Of a DNA stretch of 64,000 bases, positions 2,725-63,499 are shown one piece after another (the stretch's first letter is position 1; the number at the start of each line of letters is the position of its first letter). The position numbers were made by a program, and so were the translations under genes. This stretch comes from a virus. The stretch is taken from IMG/VR virus record IMGVR_UViG_3300023202_000336, positions 116,135 to 180,134 of that record. One strand, given 5' to 3'. The notes beneath the pieces were generated by a model. It did no database searches, was not told the DNA's origin, and was given only the letters and a program-made list of their open reading frames with translations.

Positions 2725-3270
2725 ATGACCAAGCCATTACCCCTTGATGTAACGAAACTTAGGGATTTCGTGATAGAATCAAATACGGTCGAAGGCATCG
2801 TCAGAGACGAGAAAACACTTAAGGAGGAGGTAGAAGCTCACGAGCGACTGCTTCGGTGCAAAAAGGTCGAGGTTCGAGACGTCGTAAGACTCGTGAACAC
2901 AGTGCAGCCGAACGCTCAGTTCAGGGATCATCAAGATATCCCGGGAGTCTGCGTGATAGCGAGGGTGCAGCGTCGGCATCATACCGAGACAGTCGTTATG
3001 TCCGAACCTCCAGAGAGTGGACCGCTCATCAGGGCCCGTCTACAAGACGTGCTCGATAAAGTCGAGAGGATGGAGAACGTTTATACGAATCATCTTCTTT
3101 ATGAAGAGCTTCACCCTTTTACCGACGGGAACGGTCGTTCAGGACGGGCGGTATGGCTATGGCAGATGTTGCGTACTGATATACCGTGGGGTTATCGATT
3201 CGAGCTACCGTTCCTGCAGAAGTGGTACTATGACTCGTTCTCTATGCTCGCTCAGGAGCCTCGTATCTGA
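2725..3270 (+). CDS. Fic-domain protein (AMPylase family)
   Basis: Canonical HPFTDGNGRSGR motif; AAGGAG at 2712-2717 before ATG 2725. Confidence 0.9.
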   Translation: MTKPLPLDVTKLRDFVIESNTVEGIVRDEKTLKEEVEAHERLLRCKKVEVRDVVRLVNTVQPNAQFRDHQDIPGVCVIARVQRRHHTETVVMSEPPESGPLIRARLQDVLDKVERMENVYTNHLLYEELHPFTDGNGRSGRAVWLWQMLRTDIPWGYRFELPFLQKWYYDSFSMLAQEPRI

Positions 3271-3414
3271 GACGAGATGGATCATCGAGGTAGGCATATA
3301 TGAGGCAGATAGACACCCGAGTATAGGAGTATATATGAGAAAGTAATCGCGAGCTACTAATGCACGAGAAGTAATAGCGAGCTACTAACGTACGAGAAAG
3401 AAGAGGATACTAGA

Positions 3415-3726
3415 GTGAAGTATACGAGAGTGAAACATGCGAGAAACAAGAGTGCCGCGACCTCCGGTGAGAAATTCATTTGGAGTGTATTCGCGTGGTC
3501 AGCGTTAGGCGCTATCGTTCTAATAGCCTTTGATTACATATGGCCCTACGCAGTCGCAGCCGCGTTCTGGTGGTCAGTTTTATGGAGCCTTTGCTGGGTT
3601 CTGAATACTCTATTCGACAAAGTTGAGTGGCTGGATGACTGGCTTGTAGGAGGGCCCGGACTGAGAGAAGTAAAAAGGGAGGTCGCTAAATACCATAAAG
3701 AACAAGTATTAAAAAAAGAAAGTTGA
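3415..3726 (+). CDS. Small membrane protein
   Basis: Two hydrophobic Trp-rich segments; followed by a terminator. Confidence 0.6.
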   Translation: MKYTRVKHARNKSAATSGEKFIWSVFAWSALGAIVLIAFDYIWPYAVAAAFWWSVLWSLCWVLNTLFDKVEWLDDWLVGGPGLREVKREVAKYHKEQVLKKES

Positions 3727-3745
3727 TAGCGCCGAGTGATTGTTC

Positions 3746-3773
3746 GGGCGGGACAAGCCCCCGCCCTCTTTTT
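3746..3773 (+). terminator. Intrinsic terminator
   Basis: GGGCGGG/CCCGCCC stem followed by TCTTTTT. Confidence 0.65.
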
Positions 3774-3941
3774 AAATCGAGTCGAGCTACCGTTCCTGCA
3801 GAAGTGGTACTATGACCCGTTCACTATGCTCGCTCAGGAGCTCCGTATCTGAGATAAAAAAAACTAGTGAATCAGAAAATAGATGATATAGGGTATAATA
3901 AAACGAAGGTAGGCGTATTTCTGTAATAAAGGGGGGACGTC

Positions 3942-4631
3942 ATGATAGATGCGATGGTAGCATATTACGGTAGGCAATTTCGAGTACGTAATAAGAACGT
4001 GTATAGATACCTTTCAGGAATGCAAAAGGATTATAACGAGAGAGCTCGAACGAGGTGTAGAGGGTTCGAATACATGCGTTTACGGAATAGAGGGTCAAAT
4101 TACTGTGGGAACCCATTTTGCCCGACGTGTTGGCACCGTAAACAAGAACATCTTATTAGCTTCATCATGGATGCTCGATCAGATTTATTATTTTTGAGAG
4201 TAACTGACGAGGTCCACTGGGAAGATACACTTAACAAAAGATATCTCGATAAACTAAAAAGTAGAAAATATAGACTCATAGCTCAATGTATTTCTTTTGA
4301 TAACCTTATAGGCGTGATCGATGATATCGGGTATAAAATAGCAGGCATATATAGCGCGAGTAGAGAGGTTCACGATGAGGATACACCAGGAGTGTCTTAT
4401 GTACACGAGCAGGCGAATGATCCTTTGTCGGAGGTGATAGGAGCGGTAGAAAAGCTCGAATACGAAGGAAGCGATAAAGAGAGTCTTATACATGATTGGC
4501 AAGATACTATGAAGCACCCGTATAAGTTTCGTAGGCACTCGAGGTTTAACGAGTATATTCGTAGGTTTGAAACGTTTCGTATTGAACGAAGTTGGGCGAA
4601 ACGCGGAATTGTACCCCGAGGAGGACGTTGA
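3942..4631 (+). CDS. Hypothetical protein with CxxxxCxxC zinc knuckle
   Basis: YCGNPFCPTCW; stop overlaps the sbcD start (TGATG). Confidence 0.55.
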   Translation: MIDAMVAYYGRQFRVRNKNVYRYLSGMQKDYNERARTRCRGFEYMRLRNRGSNYCGNPFCPTCWHRKQEHLISFIMDARSDLLFLRVTDEVHWEDTLNKRYLDKLKSRKYRLIAQCISFDNLIGVIDDIGYKIAGIYSASREVHDEDTPGVSYVHEQANDPLSEVIGAVEKLEYEGSDKESLIHDWQDTMKHPYKFRRHSRFNEYIRRFETFRIERSWAKRGIVPRGGR

Positions 4632-5725
4632 TGGCTAATCCGGCATTTATAGCTCTCGGAGATCTTCATCTTGATTTCTATATTTGGCGTAAATTCAAGC
4701 AAGTAAAAGGCGATTCGTTTCTAGGATTCACCTCTTTGATAAATAGAGGTATAGCTCTCGGCGTTCCGGTCGTACTCGTAGGCGACATATTCGATACAGT
4801 CGAGCCAGACCCAGCTATTATACGATTTTTTCGAAGAGAGATGGATAGATGCAGGGATAACGACGTTGAAGTATACGCGATTCAAGGGAATCACGATCGA
4901 CGCCCGATACCCTGGTACTCCGCAGTCCACGACTGGCCTATTCATATCGGAGACGGTGAGGAAGTAGATATAAACGGTATCGGATGCGTTGCTTTCGACA
5001 ATATGACGCGCGATAAAATAGAAGACGCTATAATGAGCCTGAGAGACTGCGTGCCGAAGCCAGACGTCCTGTTTCTTCATCAAGCGGTGCGTCAGATGCT
5101 GTCATTCGAAGGGGCGTGGAATTGCGATCTCGATTGGATACCGGAAGGCATCCCGGCCACTATAATGGGTGATATACATAAAGAATGGGAACATAAAATA
5201 CGCGAAGGACAGAAGGCGTATTATACCGGCTCGAGCCATCCGAGAGAAGCGCCGGAGATAGGTTCGAAATCATGTATCGTCGTAAATGACGATCTTTCGG
5301 TTGAGAGACTTCCAATTGATTATAGGCCTATGACGAAACTCTATGTGAGATCTGATAAAGAACTAGAGGATCTGCGATCATGGGTCAACGAGGCTGTCGA
5401 GTCGAATCCGAAACTTCCTCCGTTCGCCTGGGTTGTGGCGTCTCCGGAGAAAGAGAGCGATATACTGGAGTTCAGAGAATCCTTCGAGGACGGCTCAGTT
5501 ATAATCATAACCGAACCTTTCACATTTAAAGATGATATAGAAGATCCAATAGTTGATGATGAGGAATGTTTAAGTATAGAAGCGCTACTTTCAAGATTCT
5601 TCGATCCAGATGAAGAACCAAAGAGTTATTCGTTTGCGGCTGACCTGCTCGGTCAGTCGAAGAGCGTTCTCGACGTAATAGGAGAACGCAGGGACCAATT
5701 CTATCAGGAGACCGAAGGTTCATGA
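4631..5725 (+). CDS. sbcD: SbcD/Mre11-family nuclease
   Basis: Metallophosphoesterase motifs GDLH, GDIFD, GNHD, LFLHQ, GDIH, YTGS; sbcC homologue nearby. Confidence 0.9.
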   Translation: MANPAFIALGDLHLDFYIWRKFKQVKGDSFLGFTSLINRGIALGVPVVLVGDIFDTVEPDPAIIRFFRREMDRCRDNDVEVYAIQGNHDRRPIPWYSAVHDWPIHIGDGEEVDINGIGCVAFDNMTRDKIEDAIMSLRDCVPKPDVLFLHQAVRQMLSFEGAWNCDLDWIPEGIPATIMGDIHKEWEHKIREGQKAYYTGSSHPREAPEIGSKSCIVVNDDLSVERLPIDYRPMTKLYVRSDKELEDLRSWVNEAVESNPKLPPFAWVVASPEKESDILEFRESFEDGSVIIITEPFTFKDDIEDPIVDDEECLSIEALLSRFFDPDEEPKSYSFAADLLGQSKSVLDVIGERRDQFYQETEGS

Positions 5726-7254: not shown

Positions 7255-7259
7255 GATAG

Positions 7260-8635: not shown

Positions 8636-8661
8636 CCAACTTCAAAAGGGAAGAACAAACT

Positions 8662-8913: not shown

Positions 8914-8926
8914 ATGGCCAGAAATA

Positions 8927-8950: not shown

Positions 8951-8976
8951 CGTCATCTATGAGGAAGTGAGATAGC

Positions 8977-27188: not shown

Positions 27189-27316
27189 GGAGGCGTGACC
27201 TAGGTATCGAAAAGGTAGACGGGTTTACAACTGATCGTTGAAATATGGCATTCTATATCTTTCTATGGCATGGGTTCAATGTTGACACAGTGCATAGGTG
27301 ATGTAGGTTTTCAATC

Positions 27317-43036: not shown

Positions 43037-43534
43037 ATGAGTGAGCTTATATCACTACGGTTGATAATAACTGTACTCGCATTGAGCGCCGGGGCTAGTT
43101 ATGGAGCCTTGACCAGGCATAGCTTCAAAAGTCTTTATGACAAGGTTTATATAGTTTTCGGTCGCGTTTTTTATTCGTTTTTTCCGTTCGCACTTTTGTT
43201 CACAATTGCTGGTGTATTAGTATTGATAAACGCAATACTATTCCTTCCTGAACCTTTCAAGCTGTGTTTTTGTATTTTCCTTGGTTTTCCAGCATACGCG
43301 GTTGGTAATATATCTGCAGCATGGCTTGCCCGAGTTAGTGTAATATCGGTCCAATGTCCGAATCCGACATGCCGGTATATATGTACAAACTGGAGTGCGT
43401 TCAATCCACGGCCGGTAATGAAGTGTAAAAGGTGTCACAGTGAGTTCATGTTTCATATGCTCAAGGACAATATGGTGTACGCCAAGACACTCCAAGACTG
43501 TGCTCGCCGGAGCCTCGTATCTGATGCTCGCTAG
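43037..43534 (+). CDS. Membrane protein with C-terminal zinc ribbon
   Basis: Hydrophobic N-terminal part; CPNPTC and CKRC. Confidence 0.6.
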   Translation: MSELISLRLIITVLALSAGASYGALTRHSFKSLYDKVYIVFGRVFYSFFPFALLFTIAGVLVLINAILFLPEPFKLCFCIFLGFPAYAVGNISAAWLARVSVISVQCPNPTCRYICTNWSAFNPRPVMKCKRCHSEFMFHMLKDNMVYAKTLQDCARRSLVSDAR

Positions 43535-43622
43535 AGCTTCGTATCTGAGACTGAGATGTAGCTGAGACTACAGCCGTTTACACCGTTCCCTCCCCACCCC
43601 TCTGCCGAAAGGAAGGCTGATT

Positions 43623-44513
43623 TTGAGTAAGCAGCACGAACATCTATTTGAAAAAATTTTAGGAGTAGCCTATGGTACCGCTGGCGCCGAGGGCGAAGAA
43701 ATACCGAAATCGAAAGCTAAATTTTGGAGTCGCGACGATAATGGTAACTACCTTTGCTTCTATCCGGAGCTAAACCCACAGAAGCGTCTTGCCCCGGGGG
43801 TTTACAAAGTTTACAAAGTACCTATGGGTACTGTATTTCATCGAGACGACGTCAAACGTATTGATACGATTGATCTCTCGAGCGAACAGATAAAGGTTCT
43901 CGAGCAGGTGAAAAAGTTCTGGGGGTATAGGGAGAAATACCGCGAACTGAACATCCCGCATAAACGTGGGTTCCTGCTGTACGGCGAACCAGGGACAGGG
44001 AAAACTACTATACTCACGGAAGTCGTGCATCGAGTGATCGATATGGGAGGCGTTGCTATCAACGTACCGGAAAGTGCGGAGCTTCGAACTATCTCGCAGG
44101 GTATTAGTGATATTCAAAAGCTTGATGGGCCTCGTCCCATATGTTTCTTCATCGAAGACATCGATATTTATGAGGATAACCATGCTTTCGTAAACTTCTT
44201 GGACGGCACGAATGAGCTCGACGGCGTGATCATTATCGCAACAACGAACTATATAGAGAACATACCGGATCGATTGAAGAATAGGCCAGGGCGATTCGAT
44301 GAGGTGCATAGGATCGTGCCCCCAGAGGCGGCCGAGTGCGCAGGTCTGGTAGATTTCTATACGAGGTCCCTTCGGGAGGAGTACGGAGAGGACTACGGAA
44401 AAGAGATCATGAAGTTTGCACAAGAGTTGGAGGGAAAGACTCCGGCTGAGATCAGGGGAGCTATCGTCGATAGATATATCTATGGCGAATACGAGAAGAG
44501 GAAGAAACGATGA
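43623..44513 (+). CDS. AAA+ ATPase
   Basis: RGFLLYGEPGTGKT, FIEDID, ATTN, RPGRFD. Confidence 0.9.
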   Translation: MSKQHEHLFEKILGVAYGTAGAEGEEIPKSKAKFWSRDDNGNYLCFYPELNPQKRLAPGVYKVYKVPMGTVFHRDDVKRIDTIDLSSEQIKVLEQVKKFWGYREKYRELNIPHKRGFLLYGEPGTGKTTILTEVVHRVIDMGGVAINVPESAELRTISQGISDIQKLDGPRPICFFIEDIDIYEDNHAFVNFLDGTNELDGVIIIATTNYIENIPDRLKNRPGRFDEVHRIVPPEAAECAGLVDFYTRSLREEYGEDYGKEIMKFAQELEGKTPAEIRGAIVDRYIYGEYEKRKKR

Positions 44514-45382: not shown

Positions 45383-45515
45383 GCTTACTCTCAGTTTTCC
45401 TGGCGGGACCCCCGCCAGTAAACTATGCTCGCTCAGGAGCTTCGTATCTGAGACTGCGCGCGCAGGAGCTTCGTATCTGAGACGTATCTAAGACAAGAGA
45501 GGAGTTTTACCTAGG

Positions 45516-45976
45516 TATCGAAAAGGTAGAAGGTCGTGGTAGCAGACACACCGTGTCGAGAGCCAAGACCGTTGTGATCGAAAATCTGAATGTGCGAGGA
45601 ATGCTGAAGAACCACTGTTTGGCGAGAGCCATCAGCGACATCGGGTTCTACGAGTTCAGACGGCAACTTGAATACAAATGCCAGATGAACGGTGTAGAGC
45701 TAATTATTGCTGATCGGTGGTTCCCGTCCACAAAACTGTGTAGGTTTTGCGGGACAATACATGAGATGTCGTTGTCGGATCGAACCTTCCAGTGTGGCTG
45801 TGGTCATATTGAAGATCGTGATGTCAACGCCGCTAAGAATCTTCGTACTCTCGGCTTGAGAGGAATTGACGCCTGTGGACAGGAAGGCTCTGGTCTTGGT
45901 TTAGATCAAGACGAAACCAGTCTGGATGAAGCAGGAACCCAATCTCTGGTAACTTCTACAAGTTACCACATTTAGG
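45516..45976 (+). mobile_element. Internally deleted TnpB element
   Basis: Same left 22-mer and right hairpin-TAGG end as 27205-28677; left end abuts the C-terminal half of tnpB. Confidence 0.75.
45553..45975 (+). pseudogene. tnpB: tnpB fragment (RuvC-II, zinc finger and RuvC-III only)
   Basis: VIENLNV, CRFC/CGC, DRDVNAAKNL; RuvC-I and N-terminus absent. Confidence 0.88.
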
Positions 45977-45988
45977 AAAGCAGCAACT

Positions 45989-46621
45989 ATGAGTAAGTAC
46001 CACAAGATACAGACCGTATTCAAGCGTGATCCCGCGAACAAAAACAGGACACTGTTGGAGGGTGAGTACTCTCTTCCAGAGTTTGAGTTTTTGAAGAGTA
46101 ACAAGTGGGTGTTCACGGAAAAGGTAGACGGAACTAACATCCGAGTCTACTTTAAGGATGGAGAAATCACCTTCGGCGGGCGAACCGATCAGGCCCAGAT
46201 ACCACCTACACTGGTTGAGCGACTTAATGACCTGTTCTTATCGCAGCGTGAACGTTTCGTTGAGAAGTTTGGCGAAGCAGAGGTGTGTCTATATGGCGAG
46301 GGTTACGGACCGAAGATTCAGAAGGGCGGAGGGAATTACCGGGATGATCAAAGTTTTGTTTTGTTCGACGTGAACGTTGGGGGCTGGTGGTTGCAGCGTA
46401 ACGATGTCGATGACGTGTCTCAATTTTTTGGTTTAGACATTGTTCCAATCGTTGGCGAGGGCACCCTGCTGGATATGGTCGAACTCGTCAGAGGCGGGAT
46501 CAAATCGGCGTGGGGCGATTTCCAGGCCGAAGGCTTGGTGGCCAGGCCCGAGATAGAGTTGCGGACACGCGGTGGCCATCGGATTATAACCAAGATTAAG
46601 TGCCGTGATTTTCCCGTTTAA
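45989..46621 (+). CDS. RNA ligase (Rnl2-like nucleotidyltransferase)
   Basis: EKVDGTN, YGEGYG, FVLFDV, EGLV, TKIK. Confidence 0.85.
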   Translation: MSKYHKIQTVFKRDPANKNRTLLEGEYSLPEFEFLKSNKWVFTEKVDGTNIRVYFKDGEITFGGRTDQAQIPPTLVERLNDLFLSQRERFVEKFGEAEVCLYGEGYGPKIQKGGGNYRDDQSFVLFDVNVGGWWLQRNDVDDVSQFFGLDIVPIVGEGTLLDMVELVRGGIKSAWGDFQAEGLVARPEIELRTRGGHRIITKIKCRDFPV

Positions 46622-46762
46622 TCTAGTTAAAGGAGGAGCAATCGTGAACCATGCGGTGGTTTTGTTTCCAGGTGGGAGGGACAGCATCTATGAAAAGAGA
46701 AGCAGAAAAATCAGGTATTACGATATACGACCGTACGTCAATCTAACGATGGAGATAAACGC

Positions 46763-47044
46763 GTGAGCGAAGCGAATCCACTTGACCGTTTTGTTAGCAC
46801 AATTTCCTCCCCAAAAGTTGGGTGGCACTGCACAACAAAGGCCAAGTTAGAAAAGTACCGCGCAAGCGGCAGGATCATCGCACCAGTTAGATTCTGGCCG
46901 AATGAAGAAACGGCGAGGCGCTGGGCGAAAAGAACGGGCAGAGAGTTGGTGATAAAAATTACCCTGCCCGGAATTTCATATCCGCTGCCTGATCATAAAC
47001 CGGCGCTATTCTGTCCGCACGATGTGGTGCAGTTTGATTGCTAA
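46763..47044 (+). CDS. Hypothetical cassette protein
   Basis: Stop codon lies inside the attC-like R'' box. Confidence 0.55.
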   Translation: MSEANPLDRFVSTISSPKVGWHCTTKAKLEKYRASGRIIAPVRFWPNEETARRWAKRTGRELVIKITLPGISYPLPDHKPALFCPHDVVQFDC

Positions 47045-47092
47045 CGCCGGCATCAGCGGCGCGGCAGCGTCCGCTGCATGCACTTGTCAGCT
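47039..47092 (+). other. Integron attC-like site 1
   Basis: TGCTAAC to GTCAGCT with inner ATCAGCGG/CCGCTGCAT arms and one extra base. Confidence 0.65.
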
Positions 47093-47114
47093 TCAGGGAC
47101 AGAAAGGATAAGCC

Positions 47115-47546
47115 ATGCCCGGTTATGCTGCTATTGGACTCGATAACCCCAAGAATGCATGCAACATCGGCAGCGCACTAAGAGCCTGTGGTGTTTATGG
47201 AGCATCTATGCTTGCCACCACTGGGGCAAGATTTGGCAGAGCACCAACTGATACCATGAAAGCCTTTAGACACCTGCCTTGGCTGCGCGTTGATGACCTG
47301 CATGACATCGTGCCTTATGACTGCGTGCCGGTTGCCGTTGATTTGATCGAAGGCGCAGCACCGTTGCCAGAGTACAAACACCCAGAACGCGCCTTCTATG
47401 TGTTTGGAGCAGAGGACGCGACTCTAGGCCAAAGAACGCTTTCATGGTGCCGTGATGTAGTCTATGTGCCGACCAATGGTTGTATGAACCTTGCGGCGAC
47501 CATCAACGTGATCCTGTACGATCGTGCAGCAAAACGAGAAAGCTAA
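47115..47546 (+). CDS. SpoU/TrmH-family RNA methyltransferase
   Basis: NIGSALRAC, VFGAED, CMNLAAT SPOUT motifs. Confidence 0.9.
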   Translation: MPGYAAIGLDNPKNACNIGSALRACGVYGASMLATTGARFGRAPTDTMKAFRHLPWLRVDDLHDIVPYDCVPVAVDLIEGAAPLPEYKHPERAFYVFGAEDATLGQRTLSWCRDVVYVPTNGCMNLAATINVILYDRAAKRES

Positions 47547-48035: not shown

Positions 48036-48295
48036 ATGAAACACCACCACAGTCAAGACGACATTGGATTCGCTGCATTCCTTGCGTTCGTGCAGCGGGG
48101 CGGCTTCGGCCCCCATACACGCAAGAGTGCCACAAACGCCTCTGCGTTTTGGCGCAAGGAGGACGCCGGCCGCAAAGATCGGGAGAAAGAGGACCACCGA
48201 TGAAACACCACTACAACTACGACGGCGCCTATGCCCGCTCAGAGGCTTCGTATCTGAGACGTACCTGAAACCATACCACGAAAGGAGGAGGGCAA

Positions 48296-48646
48296 TTGAG
48301 AAAGCATCCGCCCACTAAAGTCAGTATTACTGCGATCGCTATACTCGTTGCCGTACGAACACAGACGAACCTGGTGACGATCAAGTTCATATCAGAAAGA
48401 ACTGGTTATACCTACCAACAGGTGAAAGATGTGACTATCGGACTAGTTGAACGGAAGCTGCTCAAGCAGTATCGCCACGGAGGACAGTCGGATAACCCGA
48501 ACGCTCGTAAACAGCCCGACGGGTTTAGCATCACTACGAGGGGCAAGAAGATCGCGAGGTCTTTTAGCCCGAAGTTGGTTCAGGCGCTCCAAGAAATGGG
48601 CAAAGTAAAAATATGGCGGTATGGCGGAAAGGGAGCAGAGGGATGA
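48296..48646 (+). CDS. Winged-HTH DNA-binding protein
   Basis: TIKFISERTGYTYQQVKDVTIGLVERKLL helix-turn-helix, wing and FSITTRG. Confidence 0.6.
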   Translation: MRKHPPTKVSITAIAILVAVRTQTNLVTIKFISERTGYTYQQVKDVTIGLVERKLLKQYRHGGQSDNPNARKQPDGFSITTRGKKIARSFSPKLVQALQEMGKVKIWRYGGKGAEG

Positions 48647-48972: not shown

Positions 48973-49043
48973 CGCTCTGGTCAAGCGCCACCACTCACCA
49001 CTGAGACGTATCTGAAACTCAAACAACAGGAAGGAAACGTCCA

Positions 49044-49529
49044 ATGCGACAACATATCGACGCGGTTCGGAAGTTCATGGAACTTGCCGGCCAGGATCTC
49101 CCGGAGACACCCCAGGTACCCGATGAGGATACCCGTCTGCTCCGAGCAAAACTCATCTTCGAAGAAGCGATGGAAACGATCGAGCGCGGTCTCGGAGTTT
49201 CCGTACGTGTACAGAAGCATAGGGCGGCCGTCGGAAACAACGTCGAGTTTTTCCTCACGGAGGGACAGAAGCCCAATTTGGAGGAGCTCATCGACGGTGT
49301 AAACGATATATTTGTCGTTTCGACCGGGACGGCGCTGGCAGCAGGAATCGACCCCGAGAAGCACCAGGAGGAGGTCGATAACGCGAATCTACGAAAGTTC
49401 AGCGAGGACGGGTACCAGAGCGACGGCTCAGACGGGAACCCCGAAGGAAAGTGGATCAAGCCGCCTGACTGGCAGCCGCCGAACCACCAGAAACTGCTCG
49501 AGCAGGCATCTGAAAGACAGTCTGAATAG
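49044..49529 (+). CDS. MazG-like NTP pyrophosphohydrolase
   Basis: LIFEEAME, EELIDGVND, EVDNANLRK, GKWIKP. Confidence 0.8.
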   Translation: MRQHIDAVRKFMELAGQDLPETPQVPDEDTRLLRAKLIFEEAMETIERGLGVSVRVQKHRAAVGNNVEFFLTEGQKPNLEELIDGVNDIFVVSTGTALAAGIDPEKHQEEVDNANLRKFSEDGYQSDGSDGNPEGKWIKPPDWQPPNHQKLLEQASERQSE

Positions 49530-49625
49530 AGGCTCAAATTTGAACGATCTTTTCCGGCGGTACCAGCGCACATATTAAAGGAGATCGTTTAATCTCGAGC
49601 CAGAAAACCGGATTCCTGGCGGTTT

Positions 49626-49748
49626 GAGCTTCGTATCTGAGACGGTTATAACAGCTATGGCTGGCCTATGCTCGCTCAGGAGCTTCGTATCTGAGACCAC
49701 GGCAGCACCATTTCGATTATGTTCGCTCAGGAGCTTCGTATCTGAGAC
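49626..49748 (+). repeat. Three tandem copies of the dispersed 31-bp motif with 23- and 20-bp spacers
   Basis: Copies at 49626-49643 (partial), 49667-49697 and 49718-49748. Confidence 0.9.
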
Positions 49749-49785
49749 AGACAGACAGACGAGACGACGGGGGTGGCGGTCGGAA

Positions 49786-49826
49786 CTCTTTTCTTTTTTC
49801 TTTTTTTTTTCTTTTTTCTTTTCTCT
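49786..49826 (+). repeat. 41-nt pure pyrimidine (T-rich) tract
   Basis: Read directly. Confidence 0.9.
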
Positions 49827-49860
49827 ACGAGCGTTCACGAAATGAGATACGATCGTAAAC

Positions 49861-49979
49861 GAATGAAACCTCGCATCCGAATGAAACCTCGCATCCGAAG
49901 AAAAACCCCGGTCGCGAATCGCAAACTAAGGAAACCTCGCATCCGTTCGTGAGCAAGTCGCAGGCAAAGGAAACCTCGC
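49861..49979 (+). repeat. Iteron-like repeats GAAACCTCGCATCCG
   Basis: 18-bp tandem pair at 49861-49896, copy at 49931-49945, partial copy at 49970-49979. Confidence 0.85.
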
Positions 49980-50167
49980 GCACGACGGACACGAACGTAT
50001 CTCTCGTATCTATTAAAAAAATAATCTATCGTATCTACGTAGTAGATACTCTCTCGAAGTCTGCACGGTAATCAATATTGACCCATACCTTACAGTCAGT
50101 TTTGACCTACGTTTTTGACCTTACTTAACGAGCGTTTACGAACGGGTGTGAGATCGTTCGTATACGA

Positions 50168-50869: not shown

Positions 50870-51655
50870 ATGACATCAAAAGCCCCTCCGACTGAGGATT
50901 CCAGCGTCGACGCCGACATCGAGAAGGGACCTGAACTAATTTCTGTAAAGCATGATCTCGATATTTCGTGTTTCCTTGAACTTCTCAAGGACAGTGCCCC
51001 TAAAGATATGATTAAGATATACGCGAAGAAAGCTCGCGGTGAAGACTTTATGATTCCTCGTTGGTGTACGCCGGTTACAAGACCTGTTCTGGTAGAGACG
51101 GCCGAACGAATTTTCGGATGTATGGATCCTGTTAACCGCGAAAGTATGAACCGGCTTATTGCAGGGCCAGGGTCGGAGTCCGTCGAACAGTTGAGACGAA
51201 ATGTAGCTTCGTTCATGAATACCTACATGCCTCCGAGTGTGATAACCGATCTTACGCGCCGATTTTTCGACTGCCCGTTGAGCTACATTAAGATGGACTC
51301 TATTTCTGTCCATAACGTCGAGGTAAGTGAGTGTGTTACTACCCGCGTACGGTGGATGAGTCTTCCAGAGATCACGTTACGTTATTACGGTGAAATCTAT
51401 CTCGATGACGAAAACGGGGATTGTCTTCCGCCCGAAGAACTTGGAGATCCTCAGTTCGATGGGAAGTTTCATTTTAATAGCTTTTTACAAAACCTTGAAA
51501 CCTATGTAAGCAACTTTCCGACGACGCTTTTACCTTTTGTGGTATTCTACATCTCAGAGCTTGTTCACATGGTGAGCCTGCCCGAGCTCGGATCACCGAT
51601 TAGCATCATGAAAGATACGCCTTCACTTTCGTATACTATTGTCGAGGAGGAATAA
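50870..51655 (+). CDS. Hypothetical protein
   Basis: GAAAGGA RBS, 261 aa. Confidence 0.65.
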   Translation: MTSKAPPTEDSSVDADIEKGPELISVKHDLDISCFLELLKDSAPKDMIKIYAKKARGEDFMIPRWCTPVTRPVLVETAERIFGCMDPVNRESMNRLIAGPGSESVEQLRRNVASFMNTYMPPSVITDLTRRFFDCPLSYIKMDSISVHNVEVSECVTTRVRWMSLPEITLRYYGEIYLDDENGDCLPPEELGDPQFDGKFHFNSFLQNLETYVSNFPTTLLPFVVFYISELVHMVSLPELGSPISIMKDTPSLSYTIVEEE

Positions 51656-51793
51656 GTAATAGGCTCTGACGATCCGTCCGTATCTGAGACGTGGATACGA
51701 GTTGATACAGGGAAAAGAAGTCCCTGCGTGGAGCGGTCTCACGCTCGAAGAACTCGTCGACGAACTCATCGGTAAGGCTAATTAGTGTGGTCG

Positions 51794-52664: not shown

Positions 52665-52739
52665 ATCGGCTATCCTTGCTCAGGAGTTTCGTATCTAAGA
52701 CGTATCAGAAAATCTGAAACACAACTGAAAGGAAACGTT

Positions 52740-53282
52740 ATGAACTTAGACAACCCCACTCTCGTGCTGATCAGGGGCCTTCCCGGGAGCGGCCGTAGCA
52801 CGGTGGCGACCGCTCTTCATGAAGATATTTGTCGCTTCGAAGCCGACGATTTTTTCATGATCGATGGTGAGTACAACTTCGATCGTCGGTTTTTGAAGGA
52901 CGCGCACAACTGGTGCCGTGCGCAGGCCGCGTACTATTTGTTCAGAGATGAGGACATCGCTGTTTCGAACACTTTATCCATGTTCTTCGAAATGGTTCCG
53001 TACTTTAAGCTCGCGGATTATTACGGCGCCAACAAGGTCGTGATCGAGTGCTGCGGGGATTTCGGATCGACGAAACCGATCCCCGATTACGTAACTGAAC
53101 GGGTGCGCAATCGGTGGGAAGAGATCTTCGAGCCGAAGAAACACGATATCTGTGTGATCAAGCTTCCCGAGCACGTCATCGAAGATCTTCGTGATGCCCC
53201 GGGGACGCTCGATATCGAAGATATCCTGACCTTCGCTGGCGATTTCTCGGGGTCCGAATCTTCGAGATACGCGGCGGTGTAG
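52740..53282 (+). CDS. P-loop kinase (AAA_33 / polynucleotide kinase-like)
   Basis: LIRGLPGSGRST (Arg replaces the Walker A Lys), EADDFF, AHNWC, VSNT. Confidence 0.75.
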   Translation: MNLDNPTLVLIRGLPGSGRSTVATALHEDICRFEADDFFMIDGEYNFDRRFLKDAHNWCRAQAAYYLFRDEDIAVSNTLSMFFEMVPYFKLADYYGANKVVIECCGDFGSTKPIPDYVTERVRNRWEEIFEPKKHDICVIKLPEHVIEDLRDAPGTLDIEDILTFAGDFSGSESSRYAAV

Positions 53283-53423: not shown

Positions 53424-53930
53424 TTGCATGAGCTTACACCGAATGACCTCATTTATCCTCATGTGAGGGCTGAGGTGATACGCCAGTTGAAAGATGTATA
53501 TTCTGGTCGCGATTTTATAAAGCTCTGGCAGGAGGTATCATACGGTGACTATAGGGGTTTAAGAGACTTATTTTATAATCCTTTCAGTAAGAAGATGAAG
53601 AGGAAGTGCGTTGCGCTATTACAGGAGGGCGATGTAATTCAGTTGAATTCGTTAGGCGGCTTTCCTGGTTGGGTATCTGACTTCAATAACTATCACGGTA
53701 AACTCGCGGTCATTACCGCTTTGTACAAGATTCCGGTGGCTAATATAAGATTCCTAGACGATTGCGAATTTATCAGCGATAAAGGCTATTTAGTTCCTTT
53801 GGGAGCGTGTGTTCCGTTAAAAGCCGTTGTTTATGCTCGCTCAGGAGCTCCGCGTCTGAGACACCGTATAAAATCGAAGGGAGGTGTACCTTGGCTGAAG
53901 AAGTGGATCAAAAAGATCGCAAGATTATAG
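53424..53930 (+). CDS. Hypothetical protein
   Basis: 168-aa ORF; 3' end contains the dispersed motif. Confidence 0.55.
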   Translation: MHELTPNDLIYPHVRAEVIRQLKDVYSGRDFIKLWQEVSYGDYRGLRDLFYNPFSKKMKRKCVALLQEGDVIQLNSLGGFPGWVSDFNNYHGKLAVITALYKIPVANIRFLDDCEFISDKGYLVPLGACVPLKAVVYARSGAPRLRHRIKSKGGVPWLKKWIKKIARL

Positions 53931-54643
53931 TACCGCGCCGTAGTTATTATGAGAAAACGTCAGATTTCGTGAGGAATTGGGTAAGGTTTTCAGAAGGAAA
54001 AGAACCGGTTATACCCACTATAGATAACGTGGGTATGAGTTACGTAGAGTTTATAGATAGATATAATGACCTATGTTGGAGAGAGGCTGAGTTTTGTGAG
54101 GACGATAACGGGGCGGAAGACGAGGATGAAGACTTCTACGAAGACGAGAGGGGTGTAAGAGCCCTTCTTTCTGAGGCGTTTAATAGAGAGTACCTAGATT
54201 TGGTCGTTAATTCGGGGCTAGTGTACGGGCCTATTAATAATTACGAGGCTCGTTTTAGCGACCGTTTTTATAGGGTGTTATCCCCCTTTTTTAAAGAGGG
54301 TTCTCGAGGGATCGTGGAATCATTCAGAAGATGCGCGAAAGCGTGTTTAGATCCTTACAGCGCTCTTCGTGAGCGTAGCTGCTATTGTAACAGCGACCAT
54401 GATGACCATACAATCGAAATCGGAATTATGTTAGTCAGCGCTGGTATCGGTACCACCTTTTACACTACGTTTCCGTATGTAAGCAATCCACTCTACCAGC
54501 TTTCTCAGGATGCCAGTTTCGTGAGCGTGATGGTTTATAGCCTCGCCCGTTGGACGTATGATACTGGTGCTTTTGGTACATCGGATCCATTTGATCACGA
54601 GTATATCAAATGGTTCGATCAGAGTATTATATGTGTCTCGTAG
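53891..54643 (+). CDS. Hypothetical protein, paralog family member 1
   Basis: GGGAGG before TTG 53891; shared N-terminal motif. Confidence 0.6.
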   Translation: MAEEVDQKDRKIIVPRRSYYEKTSDFVRNWVRFSEGKEPVIPTIDNVGMSYVEFIDRYNDLCWREAEFCEDDNGAEDEDEDFYEDERGVRALLSEAFNREYLDLVVNSGLVYGPINNYEARFSDRFYRVLSPFFKEGSRGIVESFRRCAKACLDPYSALRERSCYCNSDHDDHTIEIGIMLVSAGIGTTFYTTFPYVSNPLYQLSQDASFVSVMVYSLARWTYDTGAFGTSDPFDHEYIKWFDQSIICVS

Positions 54644-56091: not shown

Positions 56092-56100
56092 GGATTTTCT

Positions 56101-56615: not shown

Positions 56616-56652
56616 TAGACGTGACAGTCGGACGGACGAAATTAAGGTTTAT

Positions 56653-56731
56653 GGTTGAGATCAAGACGAAACCAGCCTGGATGAAGCAGGAACCCAATCT
56701 CTGGTAACTTCTACAAGTTACCACATTTAGG
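56653..56731 (+). mobile_element. Orphan TnpB right end / omegaRNA fragment
   Basis: Near-identical to 45898-45976 (two substitutions seen); no tnpB upstream. Confidence 0.8.
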
Positions 56732-56807
56732 AAAGCAGTAATCCATTTCGTAATGAGACTCTTCTATTCTCGCTCAGGAGCTCCGTATCTGAGACGTATC
56801 TGAAACG

Positions 56808-56852: not shown

Positions 56853-56921
56853 GGCTCAGAAACTGGCGTTCGTCGATTGCGCGAGCTCAGAGCTTCGTAT
56901 CTAAGACAGAAAGGAACACTA

Positions 56922-58235
56922 ATGCCATCAGATGAACTACTTTACACGCTTCAAGGTATCATGGATGAAACACTCAAGTGTGAGGAGCTCGAAGAGATCG
57001 AGAAGAAGATGCATGAGATATTTAGGATTCCAAACCCATCCGAGCTTCCTCGTCCCGGGGAGGTCGGGTCGTGGGAAATCTCAGATTGGGAGTCATTCCT
57101 CGCCCCACTCGGTTTCGTGGTAGTACGCACTGCGAAGCACGGATTCGTTTTCGGGCACCCCGAGCTCTCGAGCATCCGATCGGAGTTTTCAAAGACTCCG
57201 GGCGATGTCCGAGCAGGCAAAAATTTCGCGAGGTATCTACGTTCTACGTGTCGAACTTCGTATTCGAATATTTGCTATGCTGCGGAGATGATCGCGAAGC
57301 ATCGTGGGGATTTCTTCGAATGCTTCAGTGAAGAAGAGCGAAAACAAGAAGTGCCACTCGGCCGCATAGAATCGATGCTGGAAGAAGCAACACTCGAGGC
57401 TACGTCTAAGATAACAGAAAAAGATATCGCAAAATATGTGAGTGAAGAGGCGCTCGAGAAGACTCGCAAGAAGTACGAGCGTCTCTGGCGTCTAATAGGT
57501 AAGCTCAATGACGTCGGTATGCGTACGGATGACGTCATCAAAGATATGTCGCCTACGAGGCGTGCTCAGGAGAGGATAATTAGAATCCTTTACCAGAAAA
57601 AGGACCCCATTATCCCGGTGCCAGGCGGATTACTCGAGGAACTCGAAGACCTTCTCGAACAAGTAAGGGAAGAAGCGAAGATCGATAAAGAGCGTCGTAA
57701 GCGGGAGAAGAAGCTCAACCAGGCTATTCGTACCATCGTAAATAATCCGGAAAAGACGCTCGCCGATTACGAAGAGAGCGTACTCAGATGCCGCGCTGTA
57801 ACCGACAACATAAAGGCGTCAATTTCGGAGAAAGTAGGGCAACTGCAGCAATTGCAGGCCGAGGTTCAGAGAATATGTGAAGGGTTCGAGACTGATATCA
57901 CGCCTGACGTTCGATCCTTTGAGATTACTATCAAGGCGCTGAAATCTCAGATCGATGATAACGTTCGTCTAGACTCCGAGTTGAAGGATCTCAAGCGTCA
58001 GAACAGGGGGCTCGAGAAGAAACGAAAAACCGCAGAGCGCAATATTGATAATCTTGAGAAGTCGTTGTCGGGCGCTGTGAAGAAGGATCGCGTCGAGAAG
58101 TTCCTTAAGTTTCTTCGTGATAAGATCGATAACTTCAGCTTAGGCGATCATATGCGTGAATTCGAAGAGATCGAGAAGGAGTTACTTGAGCTTGCGGTGG
58201 ATGCTGGGATAGATTCCATCACGACCGCGGCGTAA
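56922..58235 (+). CDS. Coiled-coil protein with N-terminal HicA-like domain
   Basis: LGFVVVRTAKHGFVFGHP and KTPGDVRAGKN; GAAAGGAA RBS. Confidence 0.5.
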   Translation: MPSDELLYTLQGIMDETLKCEELEEIEKKMHEIFRIPNPSELPRPGEVGSWEISDWESFLAPLGFVVVRTAKHGFVFGHPELSSIRSEFSKTPGDVRAGKNFARYLRSTCRTSYSNICYAAEMIAKHRGDFFECFSEEERKQEVPLGRIESMLEEATLEATSKITEKDIAKYVSEEALEKTRKKYERLWRLIGKLNDVGMRTDDVIKDMSPTRRAQERIIRILYQKKDPIIPVPGGLLEELEDLLEQVREEAKIDKERRKREKKLNQAIRTIVNNPEKTLADYEESVLRCRAVTDNIKASISEKVGQLQQLQAEVQRICEGFETDITPDVRSFEITIKALKSQIDDNVRLDSELKDLKRQNRGLEKKRKTAERNIDNLEKSLSGAVKKDRVEKFLKFLRDKIDNFSLGDHMREFEEIEKELLELAVDAGIDSITTAA

Positions 58236-58328
58236 ATCACAAACAGCGAGGACTACGTAGAATGCACGCCCACCGTTTCGACTATTTTCGTTCAAGAGTT
58301 TCGTATCTGAGACTATATTCATACTTGC

Positions 58329-58745
58329 GTGGCTGGATCGTCGTGGCTGGGGCTCGGGAACATGTTGACGCTTCCTGATACCGTTACCGCGATATCCCCG
58401 GGGGTTGGCGGCCTCGTTATCCAGCCACGTAAGTATGAGGTTTATATAGCGGCCCGCGAGTTAATACCTGCGAAAGAACTTGTAAGAGGTATGATTCTGC
58501 ATAGGCTTGATACGGATTATATAATACAAATATTGCGAGTTAACGAGCCTGGCCCTATACTCTGGAGAAAGTATATCGGTGAGGATTGTACGTGGGTACC
58601 TGGTCAGGAGAGGTATGTAGCCGTGGTACAATACGAGAGGGAGATCAAGAACAAGAATATCACAGTAATAGCAAAGCTTATGGACGTAAGAGCTTGGATT
58701 AAGTCTGAGTATCCTCATGCCGTATACAATGATTCAGCTGGCTGA
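58329..58745 (+). CDS. Hypothetical protein
   Basis: ORF; start uncertain. Confidence 0.5.
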   Translation: MAGSSWLGLGNMLTLPDTVTAISPGVGGLVIQPRKYEVYIAARELIPAKELVRGMILHRLDTDYIIQILRVNEPGPILWRKYIGEDCTWVPGQERYVAVVQYEREIKNKNITVIAKLMDVRAWIKSEYPHAVYNDSAG

Positions 58746-59275: not shown

Positions 59276-59308
59276 TACATCACCAACCTCCTGTTTAAGG
59301 AGCTTTTC

Positions 59309-59713: not shown

Positions 59714-59748
59714 GCGCGCGTTCACTGTTTCGACGTAGAGGGTAAGCC

Positions 59749-60312: not shown

Positions 60313-60539
60313 AATGAGGCATAGACACAGGGCTAACAAAGTTTATTACTGTTAATTCCTGAAATTTCCTAAAACGATCTAGGAGGGCGGCGAGCTATGT
60401 GCCCGGCCCCAACCCGTTCGCGATAAATTTTGAGTAGGAAAAGTGACGCTCCGTAATATATGGTTGTTCCGTTGTCAGCTTTAGACGATTTTAGGACGTT
60501 CGTCAAAAGTACGAAACAAGCAGTAGAAGGGGTCATACG

Positions 60540-60962
60540 ATGACGAGAACCAGTGAATACGATGAACGGGCGGTTAATTTCGATTGGAGGAACTGGTTTC
60601 CGGATCCAGGCGATGAAGTACGATTTCTCACAGAGGAGGAGATGAGAGACCGGTGCGGCTGCAGCAAGTACTACGATGTTACACCCGCGGCCGGCTGGGA
60701 TTATACGATGAATAGATACTTTGGACTTCACGTTATCATTGAAAGGAAAGGATCCAGTATCTACCCTGTAGAGTTTGCTCCGGCTGACGACATGGAATGC
60801 CCGTATCAGGTCTACATTTTAGTAGACGGCGAGCTTGATGAAGAGTGGACCTACTCGAAAGATATGTTCGTTCCTCTTTCGTATCTCGAAGAGGTTCGGG
60901 TATCTTTCAGGAATTTTGTTAAACAAACGGTGGATAATGTAAAAAAGGTGGACATCCGCTAG
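60540..60962 (+). CDS. Hypothetical protein (intact paralog of 61694-62123)
   Basis: FDWRNWFP, VRFLT, AGW, FVPL and SFRNFVKQT motifs. Confidence 0.65.
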   Translation: MTRTSEYDERAVNFDWRNWFPDPGDEVRFLTEEEMRDRCGCSKYYDVTPAAGWDYTMNRYFGLHVIIERKGSSIYPVEFAPADDMECPYQVYILVDGELDEEWTYSKDMFVPLSYLEEVRVSFRNFVKQTVDNVKKVDIR

Positions 60963-60987
60963 TACATAAACAGAAAGGAAATAACAG

Positions 60988-61701
60988 ATGTCGGGAAAAG
61001 TGGCAAAGCGTAAAATGGGTAAACGTTCGAAGAACGCGAAGACGGTAAGTAAGAAAGCGAAGAAAGCGAGGAGGCCGAAGGAGTCGAAGAAGAAAGCTAC
61101 AAAGAAGAGCAGTGAAAAGCGTACAGCCGGTCGCAACTCTTTAAAAAGCTCGGGGCCGAAGGCGTGGGCGCCAGATCCCACAAGCGAGGTAAACAAGGTA
61201 ATAGAGGAGGTCAATCAACTCGTACCGGACGTGATATATGTCAATATGGAGAAGCGGAGCAATGCAGTTACAAATGAAGCGATCAAAAGATATATTGGTC
61301 AGGGTTACCTCGTGTACGATAAGGATTGCGAGGGGCTAATACGGCATAGAGGCAGGTACCTCATGGTTGAGTTAAACAGCGATCTCGCGGACAACCCGTT
61401 GGATGAGCACGCTATAGTTACTGATATTATGGGCCACGTTACCGAGCACCAACTACATAGCCTAGTTTTTAGCCAGTTTTTTGCGCGTAAAGTCTGGTCG
61501 ACATTGGACGAACTTTCTCTTGATAGTTATTTAGGCTCGATCAATGACGGCGCCGTGGAGCTTCATGTAAATCAGAAAACTGTGCATTTTGCTTGTAGTA
61601 CATATAAGCTTGGCGAAGTCGAAACGGTAGCTGTCGAGCTTCTCAAACGTCTTGGGTACTCGGTACAGCTCGGTAAAAACGAGGAGGGATACAGTGACTG
61701 A
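60988..61701 (+). CDS. Hypothetical protein with Lys-rich N-terminus
   Basis: GAAAGGAA RBS, 237 aa. Confidence 0.65.
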   Translation: MSGKVAKRKMGKRSKNAKTVSKKAKKARRPKESKKKATKKSSEKRTAGRNSLKSSGPKAWAPDPTSEVNKVIEEVNQLVPDVIYVNMEKRSNAVTNEAIKRYIGQGYLVYDKDCEGLIRHRGRYLMVELNSDLADNPLDEHAIVTDIMGHVTEHQLHSLVFSQFFARKVWSTLDELSLDSYLGSINDGAVELHVNQKTVHFACSTYKLGEVETVAVELLKRLGYSVQLGKNEEGYSD

Positions 61702-62123
61702 CGGGTCGGTTGATCCTTTGTCGTATAGTCAAATAGCCGTCGACTTCGAGTGGAAAGATTGGCTGCCCGAGATGGGTAGTCGAGTGAGGTTTCTTACCAG
61801 AAACGAAATGTTTGCTAAATTCGGGGGCGGTCTTAATGGCGCCCCTAATCCCCCCCGCCGGTTGGAGTAATACCCTGCACTTCCTTTTCGGAAGAGCGGT
61901 TACGGTGCGGAGTTTGCATACTACTCTGGACCCCGTCGTTCATATACTGGATTTTCAGGAGCGGAGTTGGTTTTCTCTTGAGCATGACGGCAGTGTTGTT
62001 TCGGCGTGGAACTTTTGTAAAGGGTGTTTCGTTCCGCTTAACCTCTCTTTTAGGTCTTTCGTCAAGCAGACGATAGAAAGGACCAATAAGGCATGGGAAA
62101 GCAAGGCCCCCGCCGACATATGA
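61694..62123 (+). pseudogene. Paralog of 60540-60962 frameshifted at a C7 run (61850-61856)
   Basis: Deleting one C joins NPP to AGW and restores colinearity with the paralog. Confidence 0.8.
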
Positions 62124-62596
62124 GTATAGATATCGGTGATATAGAAGCCGTTTTGGACGACCGCGAGAAGTTAGAAAAAGAAAGAGATCACTATCGAGAA
62201 CTTGTGCACAGTTCAAGGGTTATGAGTAGTTTTACAGAGCGGCCCTGGCTCGAGCCGGATGACTCAGGGGCGAAGTTCAAAGTGGTGCGATCTTTCGAGT
62301 ACCACATCGATCATCTCGGAAGCGGAAACGTAATACGAGTACCAGCGGGATTCATAACTGATCTCGCGAGTATACCTCGTGCGGCGCGATCTATTATTCC
62401 ACGGCTTGGGAAGCATCTACAGGCAGCGATCGTTCACGATTTTCTCTACAAGACAAAGAGCGTCTCGCGTAAGAAGGCAGATGATATATTTCTCGAAGCG
62501 ATGGAAGTTTTAGGGGTACCGGTATGGAAACGGTACTCGATGTATTACTCTGTTCGTATGTTCGGATGGCTTGCCTGGAAGCACGGGGAACCATGA
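62120..62596 (+). CDS. DUF1353-family protein
   Basis: VPAGFITDLASIPR, AAIVHDFLY, ADDIFLEAM. Confidence 0.85.
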   Translation: MSIDIGDIEAVLDDREKLEKERDHYRELVHSSRVMSSFTERPWLEPDDSGAKFKVVRSFEYHIDHLGSGNVIRVPAGFITDLASIPRAARSIIPRLGKHLQAAIVHDFLYKTKSVSRKKADDIFLEAMEVLGVPVWKRYSMYYSVRMFGWLAWKHGEP

Positions 62597-62888
62597 CAAT
62601 GCTCGCTCAGGAGCTCCGTGTATGAGGTGAAGTACCGCGTTGCTTCGCGGCGAGACAGCGAAGCTTAACTCTTAACTCTTAACCGAGAGGAACGAAATGA
62701 ATCGGTATAGCATATTTGACCGCTTCGTTATAGCCAGTTTACTAGGGGGATTCCTAACATTAGTTATCGCAGGTAGGTATGACTTGGCTAATTCTAATAT
62801 TCTGCTGGTTATTGCTTACGCAATACTATTCAGAGAGGACCCCGAGTGAAGCCATTACGCAGTACACTTACTCCTGAAAGGAGGCCAA

Positions 62889-63416
62889 ATGGTTGAACAG
62901 AAATTTCACCACGGAGATGTGGTAAAACTCGTAGACGAATTCCCGTCCTACATGAACCACTTTGACGGTGCTGGCGAAGAGGCGATCGTCATTGGAAGCT
63001 ACGAAGATCAATATGGAGGAAGAGGGGGCTACGGTGAGCCTGATTACACCCTTCTATTGCGGGACGGGTCAACACATTCCTGGTACCAGGAGTCACTGAT
63101 GACCTACGTCAGGCACGGCGAGGAACTGATAGATCAGTGGAAGAAAGAGAGAGAAGAACGCGAGCAGAAGTACAGGGATATTGATTGGATTCTCGAGAAC
63201 TGGGCCGATATAGCAGAGACCACGCCGGGGGTCGTGATCGATACCCTCAGCAAATTCGTCGGTGCCGGTAATATGTGGGGATCTCACGGAGAGGCGTTTA
63301 CCTATTATCAAAACGCTCTGGCGCTTCGTGGATTGTTGAATGAGGCACTACATACCGGGGACAAGGAAATCTTTCTTGCTCGGTGTGAAGAGGTGAAAAC
63401 CGAATACGTGAGATAG
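62889..63416 (+). CDS. Hypothetical protein
   Basis: GAAAGGAGG RBS, 175 aa. Confidence 0.65.
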   Translation: MVEQKFHHGDVVKLVDEFPSYMNHFDGAGEEAIVIGSYEDQYGGRGGYGEPDYTLLLRDGSTHSWYQESLMTYVRHGEELIDQWKKEREEREQKYRDIDWILENWADIAETTPGVVIDTLSKFVGAGNMWGSHGEAFTYYQNALALRGLLNEALHTGDKEIFLARCEEVKTEYVR

Positions 63417-63499
63417 CTTCGACAATGTCCGCTCAGAGGCTTCGTATTTCAGACTCGTATCTGAGACTACAATGCGCTGATCCTACGTTGAAGCTCTCC

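Follow-up and report, generated by a model that had tools for sequence, protein, structure and literature searches.

Type V-M systems of CRISPR (short palindromic repeats that are clustered and regularly interspaced) are known from Cas12m2 (PDB 8HHL; PMC10442227; PMC11013384). Their 36-nt repeat lies beside cas12m and has a disordered or variable 5' end, its 3' ~30 nt hold a pseudoknot with a stacked stem, and the guide follows directly 3'; effective guides are short and no trans-activating CRISPR RNA (tracrRNA) is needed. Cas12m orthologues cut the precursor of the CRISPR RNA (crRNA) within the repeat, upstream of the scaffold and independently of tracrRNA and of RuvC, and the protein then stays bound and blocks transcription by binding DNA without cleavage (PMC11013384, PMC10442227). 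Here we describe a repeat of the same build in a stretch of viral DNA of 64,000 nucleotides (IMG/VR record IMGVR_UViG_3300023202_000336, positions 116,135 to 180,134; hereafter the window), which belongs to a phage with a Cas12m of its own. Unlike the known type V-M repeats, two thirds of the phage copies lie outside the array, among protein-coding genes, and the phage arrays contain internal duplications or mixed repeat variants; the Cas1 family was not found in the phage genome. It is nearly certain that the motif is the CRISPR repeat, or crRNA handle, of the phage's own type V-M system. We tentatively favour, at somewhat less than an even chance, the reading that the scattered copies are RNA handles acting in cis for this Cas12m, through mRNA processing or through control of translation or stability, autoregulation included.

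Three kinds of repeats outside arrays are already known, namely viral solitary repeats (Racr), host CreR/CreA and viral Cracr RNAs. The Racrs (PMC10651486) are single intergenic repeats in viral genomes, some placed behind a promoter and some upstream of a co-transcribed gene, and in this they resemble the phage copies, of which 21 lie outside the array and 16 are non-coding. They differ in that Racrs are described as lacking an association with cas genes and as mimics of host repeats, whereas the phage has a cognate Cas12m and array of subtype V-M; its copies number about 20 per genome, and for most of them no promoter of their own can be recognised. CreR/CreA and Cracr RNAs (10.1101/2023.03.10.532045; 10.1101/2024.10.29.618823) likewise involve degenerate repeats outside the main array; one phage copy, accompanied by a partial repeat, stands in the cas12m leader, which is comparable and suggests autoregulation. 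Those RNAs act by way of a pseudo-spacer with a partial match to a promoter, beside a protospacer adjacent motif (PAM), and no phage copy has such a match: BLAST of the 36 nt after the copies against the phage genome gave no target with at least ~9 PAM-proximal bp in a cas or toxin promoter. The Cracr types listed in the part of the source available to us are V-A, I-B, I-C, I-E and I-F, with V-M not among them (10.1101/2024.10.29.618823). The omega-RNA of TnpB, from which Cas12m derives, is also related in principle, since its guide is the DNA flanking the element (PMC10097598, and as is generally known for IS200/IS605); the phage copies have no transposon ends, a far smaller scaffold, and an effector encoded elsewhere in the genome. 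In the literature we found no account of type V-M handles in cis to genes of the phage that encodes the effector.

The Repeat and Its Cas12m

The phage genome (G000 below) is complete at 180,134 bp and has terminal repeats; the window forms its final 64 kb and contains the terminase, a replication module and small accessory genes. An open reading frame (ORF) of 574 aa (L001:3825-5549) matches solved Cas12m structures (23vw_A, E 6e-47; Cas12m2 8hhl, E 1e-24), the PADLOC Cas12u1 model (1.5e-81) and the Pfam Cas12f1-like TNB domain, and its RuvC triad D313/E469/D554 is intact. Directly downstream of this type V-M gene, after a 20-bp terminator-like hairpin and an AT-rich leader, lies an array of 10 repeats of 36 nt with spacers of 18-35 nt (genome 109646-110229, 6-8 kb upstream of the window). 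The initial annotation, made from the window alone, had described a 31-bp motif in co-oriented copies. This 31-mer corresponds to positions -31 to -1 of the array repeat; the conserved unit is thus the 3' part of a 36-nt repeat. The copy at 48225-48260 of the window equals the array repeat at 31 of 31 motif positions (34 of 36 overall), and the remaining window copies differ from it at 1-6 of the 31 positions. The GTATCTGAAAC extension noted earlier is a duplicate of the motif's own last 11 nt, a near-copy of which lies directly 3' of five window copies.

One copy and one partial copy form a mini-array in the leader of cas12m itself. A CreR-like role of this mini-array was considered and rejected, its 22-nt spacer having no match upstream by eye or by BLAST.

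RNA Structure of the Repeat

In the crRNA of Cas12m2 the scaffold is derived from a 36-nt repeat with its first seven nucleotides disordered; nucleotides -22 to -17 pair with -8 to -3 in a pseudoknot on which a stem stacks, G(-23) forms a non-canonical pair with A(-2), and only 17 bp of the guide pair with DNA (PMC10442227). Compared with this published description, the phage repeat can adopt the same topology: CUCAG (-23 to -19) pairs with CUGAG (-7 to -3), G(-24) stands opposite A(-2), and GCY (-28 to -26) pairs with RGC (-17 to -15). The CTCAG/CTGAG inverted pair noticed earlier corresponds to the first of these pairings, and compensatory changes occur at three pairs of the fold. Over 62 distinct copies, collected from this phage and its relatives by a pattern scan, paired cells amount to 86.5% against 76.2% in shuffles and double-change cells to 57 against 19.9, either value being reached by none of 500 shuffles, though kinship among the copies inflates the counts. 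The pair -22:-4 occurs as GC (23), UA (20), GU (7) and AU (5), the pair -23:-3 as CG (42) and UA (14), and the stem pair -26:-17 as CG (47) and UA (10). The same covariation is obtained with the 29 copies from outside the main arrays. When the 3' partner is slid as a control, pairing falls to 30-50%, and because of this collapse and of the fit to the solved structure we judge the fold to be real. The fold also accounts for the conservation of only 31 of the 36 nt in scattered copies.

Distribution of the Copies

Within the window the 31-mer has 8 matches at three or fewer mismatches, with 0 expected from shuffles, and the 18-nt 3' core of the motif has 16, all on the + strand, with 0.03 expected. 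A covariance model of the motif (R1; cut-off E<0.01 in the window and E<0.1 in the whole genome) gives 15 window matches plus 5-6 fragments of the motif (Table 1). It finds no copy between 3.9 and 43.5 kb of the window and no significant copy on the - strand of the window or the genome, so that the motif is real and confined to the + strand, and the long copy-free gap holds, much as first described. Of the positions then listed, 15 are R1 matches, including one at 62599 that is the R1 copy at 62593 with a decayed 3' half, but those at 43501, 49001 (49001/49007), 49626 and 51679 are fragments of the 3' end only. The window contains no Rfam family at gathering thresholds and no tRNA, and megablast of 10 kb against phage records gave no match.

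Table 1. Copies of the Cas12m repeat in the window (window coordinates; R1 scores in bits).
Feature	Position	Strand	R1 match start	R1 score	Context
Full-scaffold solitary repeat	3238..3273	+	3238	45.1	Final codons of ORF 2725-3270 overlapped, with the stop codon within the motif
Full-scaffold solitary repeat	3820..3855	+	3820	39.6	
Two overlapping degenerate copies	43492..43551	+	43518	23.1 (E 0.005, 43518-43551)	71 nt 5' of AAA-ATPase gene 43623-44513
Full copy, 5'-truncated copy and 11-nt duplicated tail	45419..45494	+	45419, 45455	46.5, 31.3	Hairpin on 5' side, truncated TnpB-like ORF on 3' side
Full copy, array-type variant, with 11-nt tail	48225..48271	+	48225	50.6	ORF 48296-48646 starts 35 nt downstream
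12-nt fragment of scaffold 3' end	49007..49018	+			25 nt 5' of MazG-like gene 49044-49529
Mini-array: one 3' half-copy and two full copies	49608..49748	+	49662, 49713	45.9, 44.8	Non-coding DNA; ~20-nt spacers, then ~50-nt T-rich tract
12-nt core-only fragment	51679..51690	+			Directly 3' of gene 50870-51655
Full copy with degenerate tails	52666..52720	+	52666	34.2	Upstream stop 11 nt away; ATG of 52740-53282 38 nt away
Full copy	53827..53862	+	53827	36.2	~28 nt 5' of TTG start of 53891-54643
Full copy with 11-nt tail, then 11-bp hairpin	56760..56806	+	56760	40.0	
Copy with one-base gap in scaffold	56872..56907	+	56873	31.5	14 nt 5' of ATG of 56922-58235; ribosome binding site at would-be guide position
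Decaying copy	58278..58313	+	58278	30.2	15 nt 5' of ORF 58329-58745
Copy with intact 5' half and decayed 3' half	62593..62628	+	62593	22.6 (E 0.007)	Directly 3' of gene 62093-62596
Copy with duplicated 3' tail	63419..63467	+	63419	37.6	16 nt 3' of gene 62889-63416

Genome-wide, the 12-nt core has 35 matches on the + strand and 0 on the - strand, and R1 finds 31 copies, all on the + strand. The array holds 10 of them; the remaining 21 lie elsewhere as single copies or small clusters, nearly all between genes and pointing the same way as these. An even spread over both strands, the pattern that the initial annotation had named as speaking against its proposal, is therefore not seen. The 21 copies outside the array lie at 2.7-4.1, 107.7-120 and 159.6-180 kb, which is 21% of the genome and comprises small-gene regions near the genome ends, the cas12m locus and the terminase; the virion, RNA-polymerase and replication blocks have no R1 copy. 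Copies are confined to the variable regions and extend beyond the window, genome positions 2.7-4.1 and 107.7-112.7 kb carrying them too. By crude gene calls, sixteen of the 21 are in non-coding DNA where 1.6 would be expected (maximum 8 in 20,000 random draws); any overlap of the remaining five is with doubtful ORFs or with no more than the final codons of an ORF. A typical copy begins 11-45 nt past a stop codon, with 14-130 nt between its end and the start that follows, and in about seven cases a ribosome binding site (RBS) stands within the first 20-35 nt 3' of the copy, that is, at the guide position; the earlier remarks that copies sit at gene ends and that several precede an RBS were accurate in this respect. 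The genes downstream are diverse and include an AAA ATPase, a MazG-like pyrophosphatase, a P-loop kinase-like protein and several unknowns. Assembly unitigs from four DNA runs break at the repeats.

Related Phages and Other Genomes

A profile search from the Cas12m alignment found 20 viral contigs that encode Cas12m relatives (IMG/VR, L041-L059; up to 228 kb), and in L041, L045, L047, L054 and others R1 places an array directly downstream of cas12m on the same strand. Scattered copies occur in four further phage genomes, G001 of the same lineage, G005, G012 and G013. G001 is an 87-kb fragment of a distant relative with a syntenic replication module and terminase (23-33% protein identity), and it has a cluster of at least 13 copies at the place equivalent to 3.2-3.9 kb of the window; its sense-strand copies follow the order stop codon, scaffold, RBS and ATG. 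The same order of scaffold, RBS and ATG is seen on a Myxococcales contig from a metagenome-assembled genome (MAG). G005 has three sense-strand copies at gene junctions and arrays on both sides of cas12m (L037 1606-5095). Among five further genomes scanned (G012-G016, four at least 90% complete and G016 45% complete), G012 has 27 matches in several clusters and as singles on both strands, G013 has a canonical array and three scattered copies, G014 has one weak match, and the incomplete G016 gave no R1 match. The complete 180-kb syntenic relative G006 has an array of ~20-25 mixed repeat variants with 17-20-nt spacers (L031 18436-19770). In the arrays of G006 and G005 many repeat variants stand next to 17-20-nt spacers and the pseudoknot is kept by compensatory changes; mixed variants are present in G006, G001 and G005, and internal duplications in the array of G000.

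The initial annotation had offered three functions for the motif, the first being a promoter or operator. Conservation, co-orientation with genes and a position upstream of them are indeed typical of phage-specific promoters, and the motif could be read as a site for a phage RNA polymerase or for a DNA-binding protein such as that of ORF 48296-48646. We consider this reading extremely improbable: the motif is identical to a CRISPR repeat and covaries in the manner of RNA, G006 and G015 carry no copy outside the array, and copies in G001 and G013 have a separate promoter upstream. In G013, two of the three scattered copies lie in the order near-consensus promoter TTGAC(T/A)-N16-17 -10, scaffold, RBS and ATG, a placement by which the handle is predicted to form the very 5' end of the mRNA. 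A promoter directly upstream is present for four G001 and two G013 copies; before the window copies the sigma-70 scan found no such site and no enrichment (22 sites against 21.1 expected, with a consensus that may not be the phage's own). ORF 48296-48646, earlier proposed as a winged helix-turn-helix binder of the motif, matches no family; the evident candidate binder is the Cas12m encoded upstream. T7-type RNA polymerase and sigma-70 region 2 gave no match in the genome; the RNA-polymerase control was also blank, so the missing polymerase match carries no information.

The likeness to PeSL cassettes, which in T4-type phages combine an early promoter with a stem-loop, had been suggested as an established analogue. 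The phage copies share with them a short repeat that borders small accessory genes and breakpoints of homology at the element. The comparison fails because no promoter-like site stands upstream of the window copies, and the structure is that of a CRISPR repeat with a crRNA pseudoknot. Recombination itself has limited support. The homology of four paralogue sets breaks off exactly at the 3' end of the scaffold: three pairs, at window 3194-3273/3776-3855 (family D5), at genome 2715/2891 and at G001 26830/27824, and the four G001 cassettes described below. The scattered copies may on this ground be regarded as DNA-level relics or by-products of recombination, at most as homology patches that shuffle modules in the manner of PeSL; some copies are decayed (58278, 62593), one pair adjoins a truncated TnpB-like gene, and copies are found only in variable regions. 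Such a history, taken as the whole explanation, is quite improbable in our judgement, since sense orientation, intergenic placement and a compensated pseudoknot in distant phages are unexpected for neutral relics.

The scattered copies are closest to the array of their own genome in four of five genomes (0.97, 0.87, 0.88 and 0.92), and in G000 their likeness to the own array (0.85) ties with that to the array of G001. This likeness implies that they belong with the phage's own Cas12m system, through co-evolution or recent origin. It bears on the possibility that the copies are decoy RNAs of the Racr or Cracr type, which would titrate or redirect the Cas12m of the host or of a co-infecting phage. 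Solitary phage repeats, often behind a promoter and sometimes co-transcribed with a gene for an anti-CRISPR, serve as anti-CRISPRs in RNA form (PMC10651486), crRNA-like RNAs of viruses take over Cas proteins of the host (10.1101/2024.10.29.618823), and the units of promoter and scaffold in G001 and G013 fit this layout. We hold a decoy role to be rather improbable, since the phage encodes a cognate Cas12m and array, the copies would titrate the phage's own effector, and a pattern scan of 185,579 species genomes found the scaffold in no bacterial V-M array, the only finds being one spacer and one solitary copy. The phage copies thus share with Racrs the solitary intergenic position in a mobile element, and not the lack of cas genes or the mimicry of a host repeat.

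Spacers and Possible Hosts

Spacers 1 and 6 of the array are near-duplicates (L001 5682-5716, 5987-6021), and 24 of 24 nt match an ORF with a HEMGH motif in a Woeseiaceae MAG (L038 4650-4673), in the coding sense and preceded by TTC; chance alone would give about 0.004 such matches in the collection. This ORF may be the host-gene target of the duplicated spacer or an orthologue of one, and because the match stops after 24 nt the spacer was probably aimed at an orthologous gene of some other genome. The other array spacers have no match in this MAG, and none of the array spacers targets the phage genome itself. Among four relatives the only cross-target is a 16-nt seed match of spacer 1 in G006, likely by chance. 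In the opposite direction, a spacer in an Acidobacteriota MAG (CAVUJU010000005.1; L039 7768-7801) copies the scaffold of the phage group and sits in a large bacterial array with an unrelated repeat type, which shows that this Acidobacteriota lineage has been in contact with at least one phage of the group.

Function of the Scattered Copies

Four observations speak for handles acting in cis: what the motif is, how its RNA folds, where the copies lie and how well they match the own array. From these we infer transcription, binding, cutting and a regulatory outcome. The scattered copies would be transcribed within phage mRNAs and fold there into the crRNA pseudoknot handle. Since orthologues cut repeats, a scaffold in a sense transcript is expected to be bound and cut: the phage Cas12m would bind the handle and cleave just upstream of it, as the published orthologues do. 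Polycistronic transcripts would come apart at the cut, and Cas12m would remain attached to the 5' end of the message downstream. The RBS would then often lie near or inside the guide channel of the bound protein, and the level of Cas12m would govern how well some 20 accessory genes, among them cas12m, are translated or how stable their messages are. Of the three functions first proposed, an RNA-processing site comes closest, the motif being a CRISPR repeat of the kind that orthologues cut.

Several points weigh against such cis-acting handles. The gene calls come from a home-made and crude ORF scorer, the closeness of the RBS may be a mere effect of short intergenic spacers, and recent spread, not selection, may be the reason why the G000 copies are so alike. 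Some copies are plainly not leaders at the 5' end of a message. An intrinsic terminator stands 12 nt past the copy at genome position 112642, and the mini-array at 49608-49748 is placed in non-coding DNA. G001 contains four cassettes of ~80 nt, ~90% alike, each with a sigma-70-type promoter (TTGAC-N17-TA(C/T)AGT) and a scaffold (L007 3105-3184, 11848-11927, 14847-14926; L011 2743-2822), in which the predicted transcription start lies at the scaffold and transcription would run antisense into gene 3' ends. In addition, G015, a complete genome of a Cas12m phage, has copies in its array only, and G006 likewise has no scattered copy outside its array.

The same stand-alone units, that is the four G001 cassettes, the unit at genome 112642 and the mini-array, are what one would expect if the scattered copies were genes for crRNAs, or crRNA-like RNAs, with a single guide, the next 17-20 nt directing Cas12m to silence DNA of the host, of rival phages or of the phage itself. 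Cas12m binds DNA without cutting and needs a guide of only ~17 bp (PMC10442227, PMC11013384), and the four paralogue sets diverge exactly past the scaffold, as at a boundary between repeat and spacer. The 11-nt tails after five window copies, taken as guides, would match the DNA of every scaffold, each match preceded by TTC, and TTC likewise precedes the sole database match of an array spacer. We nevertheless think single guides unlikely, because BLAST of the 36 nt 3' of each copy against the phage genome gave only repeat-to-repeat matches, the guides of scattered copies have no anchored match in one candidate host-like MAG (Woeseiaceae), and many of the would-be guides are merely an RBS and a start codon. 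A combination with the cis-acting handles is conceivable though doubtful: in this lineage of large phages Cas12m may be a regulator comparable to an early-gene repressor of the RegA type, which, through about 20 handles at leaders and junctions of accessory operons (the cas12m leader among them), would process the mRNAs and set their translation or stability, each flanking gene start serving in addition as a guide, in the manner of the TnpB omega-RNA, that could silence co-infecting relatives lacking the handles.

Genes and Repeats Around the Copies

Directly 3' of the two Cas12m repeats at 45419..45494 lies a 5'-truncated TnpB-like ORF (45574-45975) with RuvC-II, zinc finger and RuvC-III (PF07282, 3e-21; phrog_506 transposase). 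Its last ~80 nt and ~10 nt beyond recur with 97% identity at 56652-56741, before another repeat. This ORF may be the remnant of an insertion sequence with part of its omega-RNA region. An exact 22-nt repeat is found at 27198-27219 and 45508-45529, in two unrelated intergenic or leader contexts. Past the mini-array, 49750-50050 belongs to a non-coding stretch of ~700 nt with a T-rich tract and 3-4 copies of a ~15-nt unit, GAAACCTCGCATCCG. The repeat-flanked genes at 45989-47546 and 52740-53282 encode an RNA ligase, a SpoU-type RNA methylase and a P-loop kinase-like protein, which may form a set for RNA repair or RNA modification. The terminal repeat of the genome is spanned, at the end of the window (63500-64000) and at genome 1-1300, by small ORFs in tandem that show a 12-nt periodicity and repeating units of ~190-240 nt.

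Implications

A preprint of September 2026 reports a phage Cas12m that has an array but lacks identified targets, and describes it as the first. With 20 viral contigs against this one case, phage-encoded Cas12m seems to be commoner than reported. For this uncultured phage group, the bacterial spacer against a multi-copy handle gives a clue to the host. Solitary CRISPR repeats of viruses have so far been read as weapons against the CRISPR systems of the host, whereas here effector and handles alike belong to the virus; the handles stand in cis to about 20 of its own genes, and at least five phage genomes show the pattern. If the proposed reading is true, it would mean that a CRISPR protein naturally takes part in viral gene regulation or operon processing, by way of a compact RNA tag of ~30 nt.

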